32,000 bases of DNA, taken from positions 1,890,001 through 1,922,000 of the forward strand of contig OZ245049.1 of NCBI GenBank assembly GCA_965224465.1, in the 5' to 3' direction. This DNA is from Flavobacteriaceae bacterium. GTDB lineage: Bacteria > Bacteroidota > Bacteroidia > Flavobacteriales > Flavobacteriaceae. Both the position numbers and the translations under genes were made by a program. Shown piece after piece: positions 867-21,155 of the stretch (position 1 is the stretch's first letter; each line of letters opens with the position of its first letter). Below the pieces are notes generated by a model. It did not search any database and was not told the origin of the DNA. It worked only from the letters and a program-made list of their open reading frames with translations.

Positions 867-1475
867 TTATCGATTTAATAACACTTCTCCATTTTTGTTA
901 ACAATTCCTTTAAGTTCTATATTGTTTGTGGGATCATCATCTGCATCTTCTAATACTATTATTAGTTCTTCATCTTCTGCTATATCTTTTACTTTTAAAA
1001 ACAGCTGAGAATTAGAACCAATTTCAGATTCTTTTATAGTGTTTCCTTCTTCATCTCTCCATTCTTTTTTTAGAATTCTTGGTGTTTTTTCAATTTCTTG
1101 CTCTCTCTCTAACACCGTTGGTTCAACTTCTATAAAAGGATCCTCAAACACCCAATTTTCTATTTTTTTAACATCTTTTATTTTAACAGCTCCACACGTT
1201 ATCGCTAAATTAATGTGTAAGGGTAAATTGTCTTGATTGTCAAATTCTTCTGTAAGACCTACAATATAGGCTTTATGGAATTCTACTTTGTACAAGGTTT
1301 TAAACTCATCTCTGTCATAAAATATTAATTCACCGCTAAAACTAGCATTTGGTGAAAACATATAGTGATACAAATCGCTATCAAACCCAGTAGATTCAAA
1401 CATTAAATGGAATGGGCTTTTACGCGTTGTGGTCGTAGGGTTTCCCGTAATATCTTTAAGTTTGTATAATACCAA
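867..1475 (-). CDS. tssD: TssD/Hcp-family T6SS tube protein core with an ~80-aa C-terminal extension; its native first 24 codons lie at 1629..1700 beyond a MITE
   Basis: ORF track, 202 aa. Residues 1-110 match the Bacteroidota TssD pattern by eye (D.TGNP, LMFEST, LYKVEFHKAYIVG.TEEF, ENW). The only start is a TTG directly after an in-frame TAA. aa 1-123 are near-identical to ORF 4195..4827. Confidence 0.7.
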   Translation of the reverse strand: MVLYKLKDITGNPTTTTRKSPFHLMFESTGFDSDLYHYMFSPNASFSGELIFYDRDEFKTLYKVEFHKAYIVGLTEEFDNQDNLPLHINLAITCGAVKIKDVKKIENWVFEDPFIEVEPTVLEREQEIEKTPRILKKEWRDEEGNTIKESEIGSNSQLFLKVKDIAEDEELIIVLEDADDDPTNNIELKGIVNKNGEVLLNR

Positions 1476-1628
1476 TTACAATCCAAAACAACTGATATAA
1501 ATAGTTTATTTTACGTTCTAGCGTTGTTGAAAAATAGAACCATAGCTAAGGCTATACTTAGATTTTTCGCCTAGCTAAAACAAAAAATAATTCCATTTCT
1601 AAACCGTTACTTGGAAATGTATTTGGTA
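1470..1628. mobile_element. MITE-like element copy A1 (159 bp) inserted inside hcp
   Basis: Termini are TACCAATTACA ... TGTATTTGGTA (11/12 inverted repeat, extendable to ~17 bp). It is flanked by TAA at 1467-1469 and 1629-1631. It has no ORF and five in-frame stops. It is identical to 4822..4980. Confidence 0.75.
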
Positions 1629-1700
1629 TAAGGTGTATTCTGCTCTTAATAACGTTCTTTCTTTTCCATCTATAATGGCGATGCCTTTAAAACTACTCAT
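1629..1700 (-). other. tssD: Detached 5' coding segment of hcp (24 codons, MSSFKGIAIIDGKERTLLRAEYTL)
   Basis: ATG at 1700..1698, in the same frame as ORF 867..1475 (225 nt apart). The peptide matches the TssD N-terminal strand pattern (F+..L...GKE..VL...Y.L). As it stands, the frame terminates 9 codons into the MITE. Confidence 0.65.
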
Positions 1701-2094
1701 GGTTTTTCAATTTTTGATTCATCTTTTAATTGGGTACAGCTTTTTTTTAAATCCGTAACTAGCACCCATAATCTCACAATAGCAATCCCGAACATGATGG
1801 TATATCCATATCGTTCACAATACAGGATGGGCTTATTGTTAGGGTGTGCCTATTTTTTTAAACGTAGATCAAATATATAAAATAATGTTATACGCAGCAT
1901 GCTTTTATGGTTAAGCCCCACATTTAGGGGGTAAATCCCCGTAGCACTGTCTAGAAACAGAAAATAATCTTTCGGAGTGCATCTTTTACGCTTATGTAAA
2001 GGATTTTGACCCCATATACAGTGCTGTTTATTTGGTTATCACAAGAGGCTGACTGCTCTTTTACGGAGCTTTAGATGTAAGAATTAATCTCTTA

Positions 2095-2252
2095 TACAAT
2101 TAAAACCCAAAATGACCGATATAAATAGTTTATTTTACGTTCTAGCGTTGTTGAAAAATAGAACCATAGCTAAGGCTATACTTAGATTTTTCGCCTAGCT
2201 AAAACAAAAAATAATTCCATTTCTAAACCGTTACTTGGAAATGTATTTGGTA
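2095..2252. mobile_element. MITE-like element copy A2 (158 bp) between the immunity gene and the second cassette leader
   Basis: Identical to A1 from GATATAAATAG to the TTGGTA end (~125 nt). The other terminus is degenerate (TAC--AATTAAAACCC). It is flanked by TTA at 2092-2094 and 2253-2255. Confidence 0.7.
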
Positions 2253-4194: not shown

Positions 4195-4827
4195 CTAACT
4201 ATTTTGTTTTTTAGAGTTTAATTCTATTTTCATAGTATCTGAAGTTATATTAAAACCATTTATTTTATTGTCTTCAAGTAATTGTCCTTGGTGTTCCAGT
4301 GGTGCATTAATTGAACTTAAATCTATATCTGTTTGTTTACCTGTCATATCTTGTGTTTTTAGGATTAAAAACACTTTTACACCTTTTTGTGTCTTAGACA
4401 CTCTTTCTCCTTGACTGTCTTGGAAATAGGTTTCTAAGACAGCTCCTTCTCCACTATTTTCTAACACCGTTGGTTCAACTTCTATAAAAGGATCTTCAAA
4501 CACCCAATTTTCTATTTTTTTAACATCTTTTATTTTAACAGCACCACACGTTATCGTTAAATTAATGTGTAAGGGCAAATTGTCTTGATTGTCAAATTCT
4601 TCTGTAAAACCAACAATATAGGCTTTATGGAATTCTACTTTGTACAAGGTTTTAAACTCATCTCTGTCATAAAATATTAATTCACCGCTAAAACTAGCAT
4701 TTGGTGAAAACATATAGTGATACAAATCGCTATCAAACCCAGTAGATTCAAACATTAAATGGAATGGGCTTTTACGCGTTGTGGTCGTAGGGTTTCCCGT
4801 AATATCTTTTAGTTTGTATAATACCAA
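4195..4827 (-). CDS. tssD: TssD/Hcp-family T6SS tube protein core with a different ~87-aa C-terminal extension; native first 24 codons at 4981..5052 beyond a MITE
   Basis: ORF track, 210 aa. aa 1-123 differ from ORF 867..1475 at only 2 residues and then diverge completely after EVEPTVLE. It has the same TTG pseudo-start after a TAA. Confidence 0.7.
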   Translation of the reverse strand: MVLYKLKDITGNPTTTTRKSPFHLMFESTGFDSDLYHYMFSPNASFSGELIFYDRDEFKTLYKVEFHKAYIVGFTEEFDNQDNLPLHINLTITCGAVKIKDVKKIENWVFEDPFIEVEPTVLENSGEGAVLETYFQDSQGERVSKTQKGVKVFLILKTQDMTGKQTDIDLSSINAPLEHQGQLLEDNKINGFNITSDTMKIELNSKKQNS

Positions 4828-4980
4828 TTACAATCCAAAACAACTGATATAAATAGTTTATTTTACGTTCTAGCGTTGTTGAAAAATAGAACCATAGCTA
4901 AGGCTATACTTAGATTTTTCGCCTAGCTAAAACAAAAAATAATTCCATTTCTAAACCGTTACTTGGAAATGTATTTGGTA
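4822..4980. mobile_element. MITE-like element copy A3 (159 bp) inserted inside hcp
   Basis: No differences from A1 by eye. Same TAA flanks (4819-4821 and 4981-4983). Confidence 0.75.
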
Positions 4981-5052
4981 TAAGGTGTATTCTGCTCTTA
5001 ATAACGTTCTTTCTTTTCCATCTATAATGGCGATGCCTTTAAAACTACTCAT
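4981..5052 (-). other. tssD: Detached 5' coding segment of hcp (24 codons), twin of 1629..1700
   Basis: ATG at 5052..5050; sequence identical to 1629..1700. Confidence 0.65.
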
Positions 5053-5445
5053 GGTTTTTCAATTTTTGATTCATCTTTTAATTGGGTACAGCTTTTTTTA
5101 AATCCATAACTAGCACCCATAATCTCACAATAGCAATCCCGAACATGATGGTATATCCATATAGTTCACAATACAGGATGGGCTTATTGTTAGGGTGTGC
5201 CTATTTTTTTAAACGTAGGTCAAATATATAAAATAATGTTATACGCAACATGCTTTTATGGTTAAGCCCCACATTTAGGGGGTAAATCCCCGTAGCGCTG
5301 TCTAGAAACAGAAAATAATCTTTCGGAGTGCACCTTTTACGCTTAGCTAAAGGATTTTGACCCTATATACAGTGCTGTTTATTTGGCTATAACAAGAGGC
5401 TGACAGCTCTTGTACGGAGCTCTAGAAGCAAGAATTAACCTCTTA

Positions 5446-5480
5446 TACCAACTACAATCCAAAATAACCGATATAAATAG
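5446..5480. mobile_element. 35-bp terminal fragment of the same MITE family (A4)
   Basis: TACCAACTACAATCCAAAATAACCGATATAAATAG matches one terminus of A1, A2 and A5. Similarity stops abruptly at 5480. Confidence 0.6.
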
Positions 5481-5891
5481 GTTGTTATTATTTACTAGCT
5501 GGTCTTTTTTAAATCTAACAAGCTAAACAATCACAGCAGGAAGTTTATTTACAACTGAGTTTAGTCAAGATTTATTATTTGCTCACCCCTATTATTTTTA
5601 CGGATGTTCGCAAGGTACTTCACGTTGCTTCTCCAAAAAATAAAGCAAAAAAAAAGAGATTTTTATAATGTGAATTTTAAGGTAAAAAAAACATATCTAA
5701 AACTGCGAGACTCTCCTAACTTCACTCTTGAATCTTGTAGCTTTTGAACATATATTTTGAATAAAAAACAAGCTCCAATGTAAGATTATTATTACAACCA
5801 GCATTGTTTATCAACACTTTATATAGATAACTATACATTATCACGGACACTGGTTTTATTTTTTCAGGTAAAAAAAAATGATTTATATCTG

Positions 5892-9309: not shown

Positions 9310-9432
9310 ATATTTCCTTTTTTCGGGTCAGAATCCCCATTACTATTGATTAAATACATTGTCACAAACACAATTCCAACTAACAGATATAACAAATTAA
9401 TTTCTAATCCGTGATTTAGAATTCGGTGAGTC

Positions 9433-11927: not shown

Positions 11928-13414
11928 TTAATATCCTATATTTTGGGTGATTTTCCCACCTGATTTATCAATATCCCTTTGAGGAATAGGATAAAACACA
12001 TTGTGATCTTGGTAGTTTTTACCTAAAGCATTCAATACTTTTTTTGCCACACCCCATCGTTTTAAATCATTGAATCGTTGAGACTCAAATCCTAATTCCA
12101 CTCTACGTTCTGCCATAATCCAGTTGCGAATTTCGCTTACATCGGTAGAAGTAGCTTTATCCAACAATGTTCCTTGAGGAATAACGGAACCATCTGCTGT
12201 AGGACTTGTTCTTGCTCTATTTCTAATTTGATTGATGCTTGAAATGGCTCCCGCATAATCACCCGTTTCATTCATTGCTTCCGCTTTCCAAAGCAATACA
12301 TCAGCATATCTGATGTAAATTTTATTCCCTGGAGAATCATCATTTCCTTTATAATCGCTAAGAGAACCTAGCAACTTAGAGACATGCTTATTTGGCACAT
12401 CTACGGTATACAATAACCTTGGATCATTTGCTTCAAAAGCATTTATAAAATCAGCTGTTGGAGCAAAAAATCCCCATCCAGCCACAGCAGCAATTCCATT
12501 TCCGTTTTTTGGAGTTTCTCCAGTACGGTGATCATAAGCAAAAATAATCTCGTTTTCAGAAAATTCTAAATTGGCATCAAAACTATCAAAGTAGTTTGTA
12601 TTAAGGCTGTAAAAACCGAGTCCATCCAACTCAGAAATCAACGTTAAAACGGATGTCCAATCTTTGTTGTACAATGCCACTTTTGCCTGTAATGCAATAA
12701 TAGCACCTTTAGAAGCTCTCCATGATTGAGAAGCATCCGATATTTCACATCTGTTGCATTTTTTTTAGCTGCTATTAAATCACTCTTAATTTGCTCCGTT
12801 ACTAATGCTTTTTCTGCTCTTATAGAAACAGCAAATGCTTCTTCAAACGAAACTGGAGTTGTTAAAATTAGCGGTACATCACCAAAATTATTAACAAGAT
12901 CAAAATAATAGAACGCTCTTAAAAAATAAGCTTCCGATATTAATTGTTTCCGCTGAACTTCATCCATTCCTGTTTTTTTGATTAATTCAATATCATTTAA
13001 AAAGCTAAGCGCTAAATTAACTCTACTAACCCCTTCATAATCATATTTCCAAATACCATTAAAGGCTTGGTTTTCTGAAGTAAAACTGAAATCAGATAAT
13101 TTATCCATCCAAGGTTGATCTCCATCAGGATTCCATTTTTTATTCATATCGTTGGAAGCGACATCTTGTAAAAGAATATCATTTCTAAAAACAGTTCCTA
13201 AATCCCATCTCCAACCTTCAATAATTCCATTCAAGGTATTTTTAAGTGGTGCGTATGATGATACTACCGACGATTCTATTGTTGCAATTGAAGGCGTCGC
13301 ATCTACTTGAGCATCTGTCAACAGCCCTATTGGATCATTCTCTAATTCATCCATACATCCCACCATGGCAACAAGGGTGAACAAAAAGAGGATACTTTTA
13401 TATAAATTTTTCAT
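11928..13414 (-). pseudogene. susD: SusD/RagB-family outer-membrane lipoprotein, split by a -1 frameshift near 12737-12741
   Basis: ORFs 12644..13414 (lipobox VAMVGC) and 11928..12680 form one SusD-like protein if one base is restored at AAATAT-CGGATGCT. The second frame reads back as DASQSWRASKGAIIALQAKVALYNKDW. Confidence 0.75.
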
Positions 13415-20844: not shown

Positions 20845-20954
20845 GAGCTCTATTTTAATTACTTCAAAAATATACTGTTTAAATACATAAATCCATGAAA
20901 TAAATCATTATTAATGTGTAATCCTAAAAAAAAATCCTCCTACCAAGCATGTAA

Positions 20955-21110
20955 TACCACACAATCCAATATAACCGATATAAATAGTTTATTTTACGTG
21001 CTAGCGTTGTTGAAAAATAGAACGATAGCTAAGGCTATCCTTAGATTTTCCGCCTAGCTAGAACAAAAAACAATTATATTTCTAAACCGTCAATGAAAAT
21101 GTATTTGGTA
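20955..21110. mobile_element. MITE-like element copy A5 (156 bp), intergenic, 111 nt upstream of the HTCS start
   Basis: Same termini (TACCACACAATCC ... TGTATTTGGTA) and same orientation as A1-A3. About 10% diverged. Flanked by TAA at 20952-20954 and 21111-21113. Confidence 0.75.
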
Positions 21111-21155
21111 TAATTAAAACAATATGTATATTTGTTAGTACTAAAAATTACATTT

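Follow-up and report, generated by a model that had tools for sequence, protein, structure and literature searches.

A 159-bp MITE interrupts two hcp (TssD) genes at the same codon in a Flavobacteriaceae genome

A gene for Hcp (TssD) in a 32,000-nt stretch of Flavobacteriaceae DNA (the window) carries a 159-bp element that interrupts it after codon 24, and removal of the element with one copy of its 3-bp flank restores the reading frame exactly. Is such a gene freshly inactivated, or does it depend on removal of the element? The first-pass annotation of this locus had left both answers standing, and had listed precise DNA excision in an ON/OFF switch, an RNA-level event and, as an unlikely case, ribosomal bypassing as ways in which the element could be removed or skipped. 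The data fit inactivation; dependence on removal is not borne out, as the element is a member of a MITE family. The locus is very probably an ordinary recent transposon knock-out, with no new splicing, bypassing or switching device.

Anatomy of the split genes

The interrupted gene, hcp1, lies on the minus strand (Table 1). Its start, as assigned by the gene caller, is a TTG at 1475 within the element and immediately after a TAA, giving the ORF 867..1475 and the protein P0001 (202 aa). In the same frame, 225 nt upstream, an ATG opens a fragment of 24 codons. From this fragment the frame enters the insert, continues for nine extra codons and ends at a TAG, forming a 33-aa ORF (1599..1700); in the hcp reading frame the insert holds five stops (three TAG and two TAA). 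The minus strand at the two junctions reads ACC TTA / TACCAAATAC...ATTGGTA / TTA TAC AAA, and deletion of 162 nt, the element plus its 3-bp flank, joins ACC TTA to TAC AAA. All of this agrees with the first-pass description when checked against the minus-strand reading and the ORF table.

The repaired hcp1 encodes 223 aa and matches the Pfam TssD family (PF17642) over positions 2–128 of 128, with 87.5 bits. The truncated ORF matches positions 27–128 only, with 73.8 bits, so that Pfam positions 1–26 are missing from it and positions 2–26 are recovered only after the 5′ piece is joined. Because the joined protein matches PF17642 end to end, the 24-aa piece is, judged by its sequence, the genuine Hcp N-terminus, as the first-pass annotation had proposed by comparison with Bacteroides TssD. 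The same 24 residues form the N-termini of the intact paralogues P0002, P0017 and P0018. The 3′ part encodes the remainder of the Hcp domain and a C-terminal extension of ~85 aa.

To see what the break means for the protein, the intact paralogue P0002 was modelled with AlphaFold (AF2), at moderate confidence (mean pLDDT 72.5). The structures that the model matches best are Flavobacterium johnsoniae Hcp1 (6BDC; TM 0.76 normalised to the target) and Hcp proteins of Bacteroides fragilis. In the model, residues 5–10 and 13–22 form the first β-hairpin, both strands lying before the break, and a separate β-rich C-terminal domain occupies residues ~150–228. Because the insert cuts after residue 24, a product started at the internal TTG would be without this first β-hairpin, which extends the earlier observation that the ORF lacks the first TssD strand. 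Within the hairpin that the element forms (see below), the internal TTG belongs to the 3′ arm. We infer that the split hcp allele is null.

A second hcp gene, hcp2 (4195..5052), 3352 bp from hcp1, is split at the same codon, and the orientation of the element and its target-site duplication (TSD) also agree with those in hcp1. The Hcp domains of hcp1 and hcp2 are 98% identical, while their C-terminal extensions differ. An intact counterpart of hcp2 in the same genome, P0018 (231 aa), has the same extension with one residue different, the peptide concerned being ...VSKTQK in hcp2 and VSKIQK in P0018. The first-pass annotation had noted neither this second split gene nor the further copies of the element described below. 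For annotation, hcp1 and hcp2 are best treated as MITE-disrupted pseudogenes, not as proteins of 202 and 210 aa with TTG starts.

A scan of positions 800–2400 with a sigma-70 promoter model, which is ill-suited to Bacteroidota promoters, gave no more sites than shuffled sequences, and the accompanying terminator scan gave none. A tRNA scan was likewise negative.

Table 1. Positions of the split hcp genes, the element copies and the shared leader in the window
Feature	Position	Strand	Remarks
hcp1 3′ part	867..1466	−	codon 25 (TAC) to stop
Second 3-bp TSD copy, hcp1	1467..1469	.	TAA on plus strand, TTA on minus strand
MITE in hcp1	1470..1628	+	159 bp; termini TACCAATTACAATCCAAAA...TTGGAAATGTATTTGGTA, imperfect terminal inverted repeats
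hcp1 5′ fragment	1629..1700	−	ATG and codons 1–24, MSSFKGIAIIDGKERTLLRAEYTL; codon 24 is TTA (1631–1629), the first TSD copy (1629–1631)
Leader/promoter module common to hcp cassettes	1701..2091	−	copy at 5053..5445, 96–98% identical
MITE copy, independent insertion	2095..2252	+	97% identical; ~400 bp upstream of hcp1; TSD TTA at 2092–2094 and 2253–2255
hcp2 3′ part	4195..4818	−	called as P0004 (210 aa), TTG start at 4827
MITE copy in hcp2	4822..4980	+	159/159 identical to hcp1 copy; TSD at 4819–4821 and 4981–4983
hcp2 5′ fragment	4981..5052	−	identical to that of hcp1; ends in the TTA duplication (4983–4981)
MITE stub, 54 nt	5446..5499	+	counterpart, in the hcp2 cassette, of the upstream MITE
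Degenerate MITE relic	near 9361..9402		from repeat search
MITE copy, third independent insertion	20955..21110	+	~90% identical; intergenic, between divergent genes; TSD TAA at 20952–20954 and 21111–21113

The insert as a miniature transposon

The ends of the element are terminal inverted repeats, as seen when TACCAATTACAATCCAAAA is compared with the reverse complement of TTGGAAATGTATTTGGTA, and these termini are kept among the copies. When the copies are aligned with their flanks, the common termini are TACCAATTACAATCC... and ...GGAAATGTATTTGGTA, imperfect inverted repeats of each other with the motif TACCAAWTACA.... The entire element is a long imperfect palindrome that pairs over its full length and folds into a single long hairpin of −48 kcal/mol (z = −5.3), with none of 200 shuffled sequences folding as well; the long helix of the first-pass annotation is therefore real. 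The hairpin is retained in five distinct copies, which are too alike to give a covariation signal. At 159 bp the element is short and without coding capacity, overlapping ORFs being no longer than ~41 aa.

In the 32-kb window the element occupies three independent sites, besides the stub and the relic. On the plus strand, the duplications flanking these insertions are TAA/TAA for the hcp copy, TAA/TAA for the copy at 20955..21110 and TTA/TTA for the copy at 2095..2252. Because both sides of the latter change concordantly, the trinucleotide is a TSD and not part of the element. The three target sites have nothing in common beyond TWA in AT-rich DNA. The element thus has the small size, the lack of coding capacity, the terminal inverted repeats, the TSDs and the dispersed copies of a MITE.

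This anatomy accounts for the features that had suggested a removal device. That no coding base is lost or gained is correct as a fact of the sequence, but it follows automatically from a TSD, and exact restoration upon deletion is therefore a signature of transposition and not evidence of design. Similarly, the TTATAC hexamers at both hcp1 junctions (GTATAA on the plus strand, at 1464–1469 and 1626–1631), previously viewed as possible take-off and landing sites for bypassing, are the TTA duplication plus a TAC. Only the TAC half of the match is due to chance, TAC being both the first three bases of the element and the next codon of the gene; no hexamer of this type occurs at the other two insertions.

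The window ORFs that were scanned against Pfam carried no transposase or recombinase domain. A search of the available DNA for ends resembling the terminal inverted repeats returned only the MITE copies themselves, and no insertion sequence with MITE-like ends was found beside the IS30-, IS256- and IS1595-like genes of three ENA contigs (L001–L003) or in the window. A 23-mer from the core of the element had no match in the GTDB representative genomes, a set that does not include the source genome, and a two-block pattern of the element had none in the JGI metagenomes. On these sequence searches the MITE family seems to be new and restricted, and it is offered for cataloguing as an apparently undescribed 159-bp family with TWA duplications.

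Inactivation of bacterial genes by MITEs, including genes for secretion-system effectors, is well documented (PMC10969869). Examples are MITEaba12 in hns, MITEs in the type III effector genes avrA and hopX1 and in the mcy cluster, and Correia elements that disrupt ORFs (PMC10969869). The present element resembles these reviewed prokaryotic MITEs: it is small and non-coding, ends in terminal inverted repeats, duplicates a short target site, has several copies per genome that are mostly intergenic, and disrupts a secretion-system gene whose homologues show the empty site. It differs from them in that the same insertion is found in several paralogous hcp cassettes.

Among transposase families, IS5/PIF-Harbinger and IS30 are candidates because of the 3-bp TAA/TTA duplication at all three insertions; the ends of the element are TACC...GGTA. 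Duplications of 3 bp with the sequence TWA are typical of IS5/PIF-Harbinger-type transposases and Tourist-like MITEs, and duplications of 2–3 bp are typical of the IS30 family. REPIN/RAYT elements and palindromes derived from IS200/IS605 are likewise repeated, ~100–160 nt long and folded into long hairpins. They insert without a TSD and have asymmetric ends, whereas each independent copy here has a concordant 3-bp duplication and symmetric terminal inverted repeats. Rickettsia palindromic elements are also palindromic repeats of ~150 bp found inside coding genes, and their length too is divisible by three. These elements are open in the host frame and are translated; the present element, with its five in-frame stops, allows no read-through.

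Intact paralogues and flanking haplotypes

The source genome, a contig of 5,241,564 bp, encodes a whole family of such Hcp proteins, with the intact paralogues P0002 and P0017 (232 aa each), P0018 (231 aa) and P0010 (235 aa). The junction predicted for the repaired gene, ...RAEYTLYKLKDITGNPTTTT..., occurs exactly in P0002, P0017 and P0018, and also in the relatives P0020, P0003 and others. The residues at the junction in the intact paralogues are AEYTLYKLKD; the MITE-truncated products P0001 (hcp1) and P0004 (hcp2) begin with MVLYKLKD. The earlier proposals of PCR, split RNA reads and detection of an AEYTLYK peptide as evidence for removal are confounded, because intact paralogues with identical flanks in the same genome would give the same signals.

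The ENA contig L001 holds a third gene truncated by the element, P0006, whose C-terminal extension is again different. A contig of the same ENA sample, L003, carries the intact gene P0020; at the junction its DNA is gaatacaccTTAtacaaact, an empty site in which TTA occurs once. The intragenic copies of the element in hcp1, hcp2, L001 and L002 are all 159/159 identical, and in all four interrupted genes the ORF halves on both sides are undecayed. The 33-aa interrupted 5′ ORF is recorded only for contigs of the source organism.

An alignment scan of metagenome contigs with the Hcp N-domain gave 13 related loci, 11 of them, from other metagenomes, uninterrupted, and the element was found within 3 kb of none of the 13. 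Uninterrupted alleles are thus available from paralogues in the same genome, from L003 and from these loci. One of the 13, L017, has an unrelated 5′ deletion that leads to a premature stop, so decay of an hcp paralogue is not unusual in this family. No relatives of P0002 were found in the GTDB representative genomes. The paralogues P0011 and P0019 are truncated in another way, beginning at Met46.

At least nine hcp cassettes are present in the genome, with a near-identical 5′ module of ~1 kb, and with C-terminal extensions and downstream genes that differ. The homology between hcp1 and hcp2 covers the 5′ module alone (~1108–2100 versus ~4460–5450), which consists of the edge at the upstream MITE, a leader of ~390 nt and the Hcp domain. 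At its 5′ edge lies the copy at 2095..2252 in hcp1, and in the hcp2 cassette the homology terminates inside the stub; at the other side it ends exactly at the start of the C-terminal extension (after EPTVLE), and the downstream genes differ. As hcp1 and hcp2 share only the 5′ module, they belong to a cassette family whose 5′ modules are in concerted evolution, and the leader module would serve as a substrate for gene conversion between cassettes. Variants at the protein level (L/F and A/T/E) are mixed among P0011, P0018 and P0020, and this mosaicism reflects frequent recombination.

The presence of the element was then compared with its flanks. Between hcp1 and hcp2, both of which carry the element, the flanks differ at 11 of 624 positions, while the element and its duplication differ at 0 of 162 (P ~0.06 for a uniform rate). 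Between hcp2 and the MITE-less L003, the flanks differ at only 1 of 623 positions. A second flank haplotype is made up of hcp1, L001 and L002. The nearest SNPs that discriminate the haplotypes are 116 nt upstream of the element (window position 1748) and 11 nt downstream (window position 1458). The presence of the element is thus uncoupled from the flanking haplotype, because the flanks of hcp2 match those of L003 over those of hcp1. More broadly, the genome holds a large orphan family of Hcp cassettes, with a common 5′ module and swappable C-terminal extensions, across which the MITE state has been reshuffled.

Origin of the interrupted copies

We consider it highly likely that the split genes go back to a recent knock-out by the MITE, and that gene conversion carried the lesion from one hcp cassette to its paralogues. 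A non-autonomous DNA transposon of 159 bp would have inserted at codon 24 of an hcp gene, where its target was a TTA that became duplicated. Its mobility was presumably supplied in trans, by a DDE transposase whose gene lies elsewhere in the genome. The insertion would part the promoter, start codon and first β-hairpin from the rest of the gene, and the in-frame stop nine codons on would complete the knock-out; at best, a product minus the first two strands would be made from the TTG buried in the hairpin. The 5′ module with its MITE would then have been copied to hcp2, and to the third cassette on L001, by gene conversion or duplication. During conversion a 162-nt loop may escape mismatch repair, or may block extension of the heteroduplex, while nearby point markers are converted. 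The event is taken to be recent because the four copies are 159/159 identical and the ORF halves are undecayed, and there would be little selection against the lesion because intact paralogues back up both interrupted genes. The loss is buffered by P0018 and, for the hcp1-type extension, by P0014 and P0021, which carry that extension on a divergent Hcp domain.

Loss of function, the type of transposase and the route by gene conversion are the parts of this account that we infer. Gene conversion is the simplest reading of the haplotype pattern; on the sequences compared, precise loss of the element from the L003 lineage, or repeated insertion, would explain that pattern equally well. The discriminating SNP only 11 nt away would, under simple gene conversion, call for a close tract end or patchy mismatch repair.

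Could single Hcp-effector cassettes instead be switched ON and OFF reversibly, by precise loss and regain of the element at a useful frequency? We regard this as unlikely. Loss may proceed by slippage between the TTATAC repeats, by transposase excision or by conversion from intact paralogues, and hairpins flanked by direct repeats do favour slippage deletion of palindromes and transposons. Consistent with a switch, the strong hairpin is bracketed by 6-bp direct repeats, none of the four interrupted copies has a damaged ORF half, intact genes exist alongside interrupted ones within a single genome or population, and the state of the MITE is uncoupled from the flanks. However, recent insertion combined with concerted evolution of the gene family leads one to expect every one of these observations equally. 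L003 is not an hcp2 allele but a different cassette, with another C-terminal extension and other upstream DNA, and the other two insertions lack the three additional nucleotides that make up the hexamer. Furthermore, the element itself is non-coding, no recombinase or transposase was found nearby in the window ORFs scanned, and the element is absent from the related organisms at the hcp loci scanned. What the first-pass annotation proposed as a DNA switch is a multi-copy MITE with TSDs.

A related idea, that the MITE-bearing 5′ module acts as a movable ‘off’ cassette and that conversion or hairpin-assisted excision toggles the Hcp-extension and effector cassettes, is similarly improbable; if true, a clonal population would vary in its type VI effector repertoire. 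Precise excision by slippage between the 6-bp repeats at the base of the hairpin may occur at low frequency, as may reversion through gene conversion from intact paralogues. Were gain and loss of the element frequent, they would provide cheap variation in which type VI cargo modules are expressed.

It is very unlikely that copies of this MITE entered different hcp paralogues at one and the same TTA in two or more independent events, as at a hot spot. Such a history would place the element on two flank haplotypes, as observed, with a discriminating SNP 11 nt away. Against it, site, orientation and 159/159 identity are shared at four loci, the independent target sites are alike in TWA only, and mosaic paralogues already point to frequent recombination.

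Removal at the RNA or translational level would yield full-length Hcp from a self-excising or processed insert, or from a ribosome hopping from TTA-TAC to TTA-TAC. The matching hexamers, juxtaposed by a stable hairpin, and an insert length of 162 nt that keeps the frame speak for such a mechanism, but junction identity and frame preservation both follow from the TSD. In Rfam, neither group I nor group II introns nor any other relevant family matched at gathering thresholds in the window or at E ≤ 1 in positions 1300–2350; the permissive threshold gave only a chance hit to a CRISPR direct repeat (E = 0.65). At 159 nt, the insert is smaller than known self-splicing introns, and it is a simple hairpin without a multi-helix core. 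Phage T4 gene 60 and the byps of Magnusiomyces mitochondria also have matching take-off and landing codons and a hairpin that begins at the take-off site. In known cases the bypassed gaps are ~50 nt or less, and the gap here, 162 nt, is about three times as long. Unlike in gene 60 and the byps, the take-off codon has no adjacent stop, the first stop coming nine codons later, the TSD accounts for the matching codons, and the element occurs in many copies, outside genes as well. It is a transposon. As the element is also intergenic, with duplications of its own, its ends are transposon ends and not splice sites, and we attach almost no probability to RNA-level or translational removal.

Two further candidates were rejected. 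Composite transposition of the two MITEs that flank the leader is contradicted by the matching duplication that each of them has of its own (TTA/TTA for one, TAA/TAA for the other). An assembly artefact is contradicted by the recurrence of the structure: the window holds it two times, and each of two ENA contigs holds it as well.

Architecture of the hcp cassettes

The two split hcp genes, hcp1 and hcp2, head cassettes in which a shared 5' module of leader and Hcp domain precedes a differing C-terminal extension. Relative to hcp1, hcp2 differs in this extension and also in its downstream genes, which for hcp2 are 412-aa and 206-aa ORFs, with no Pfam family found in either.

Features of the hcp cassettes (window positions unless an ENA contig is named)
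Feature	Position	Strand	Description
hcp2, second split hcp paralogue	4195..5052	minus	MITE 100% identical to the hcp1 copy, at the same codon
Cassette leader, ~390 nt	1701..2091 and 5053..5445	minus	high conservation between cassettes
C-terminal extensions of hcp1 and hcp2	867..1107 and 4195..4459	minus	variable, beta-rich, ~85 aa
Transposase genes: IS30-like, IS256-like (two copies), IS1595-like	L001 2387..4744; L002 5419..9929; L003 2509..3450		

The leader is also conserved in the cassettes on ENA contigs L001–L003, and a search of Rfam with it returned no family match. In hcp1 it carries a Bacteroidota-type −7 promoter motif, TATATTTG, on the minus strand (1877..1870), and this position implies a 5' UTR that is both long, at about 160 nt, and conserved. 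Across the related Hcp proteins P0001–P0021, the point at which the extensions are swapped is fixed, lying just after EPTVLE, and in two of them (P0014 and P0021) the hcp1-type extension is joined to a divergent Hcp domain (47% identical). The fixed junction, together with these combinations, indicates that Hcp domains and extensions are shuffled as modules among the cassettes of a single genome, of which there are at least nine.

Surroundings of the cassettes

On L001–L003, the transposase genes adjoin the cassettes directly on the downstream side; the cassettes therefore lie in IS-rich, rearranging regions. Within the window, a degenerate piece in an intergenic gap (9361..9402) resembles one MITE terminus, with 67% identity over 42 nt, and may be either an old relic of the element or a chance match.

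Other genes with actual or possible disruptions

Two further hcp paralogues from the same 5.24-Mb genome, encoding P0011 (188 aa) and P0019 (186 aa), have their start called at Met46 and not at the MITE-internal TTG, which suggests a 5' disruption of another kind. Separately, a related hcp from another organism, on metagenome contig L017 (PDWJ01024890.1, 2978..3013), has an internal 5' deletion of codons about 10–28. This deletion creates a premature TAA, and is an independent case of decay in the hcp family.

Elsewhere in the window, a SusD-like gene consists of two overlapping minus-strand ORFs (11928..12680 and 12644..13414), with its N-terminal part (SusD-like_3) in one frame and its C-terminal part (SusD_RagB) in another; it is either a frameshift pseudogene or the product of a sequencing error.
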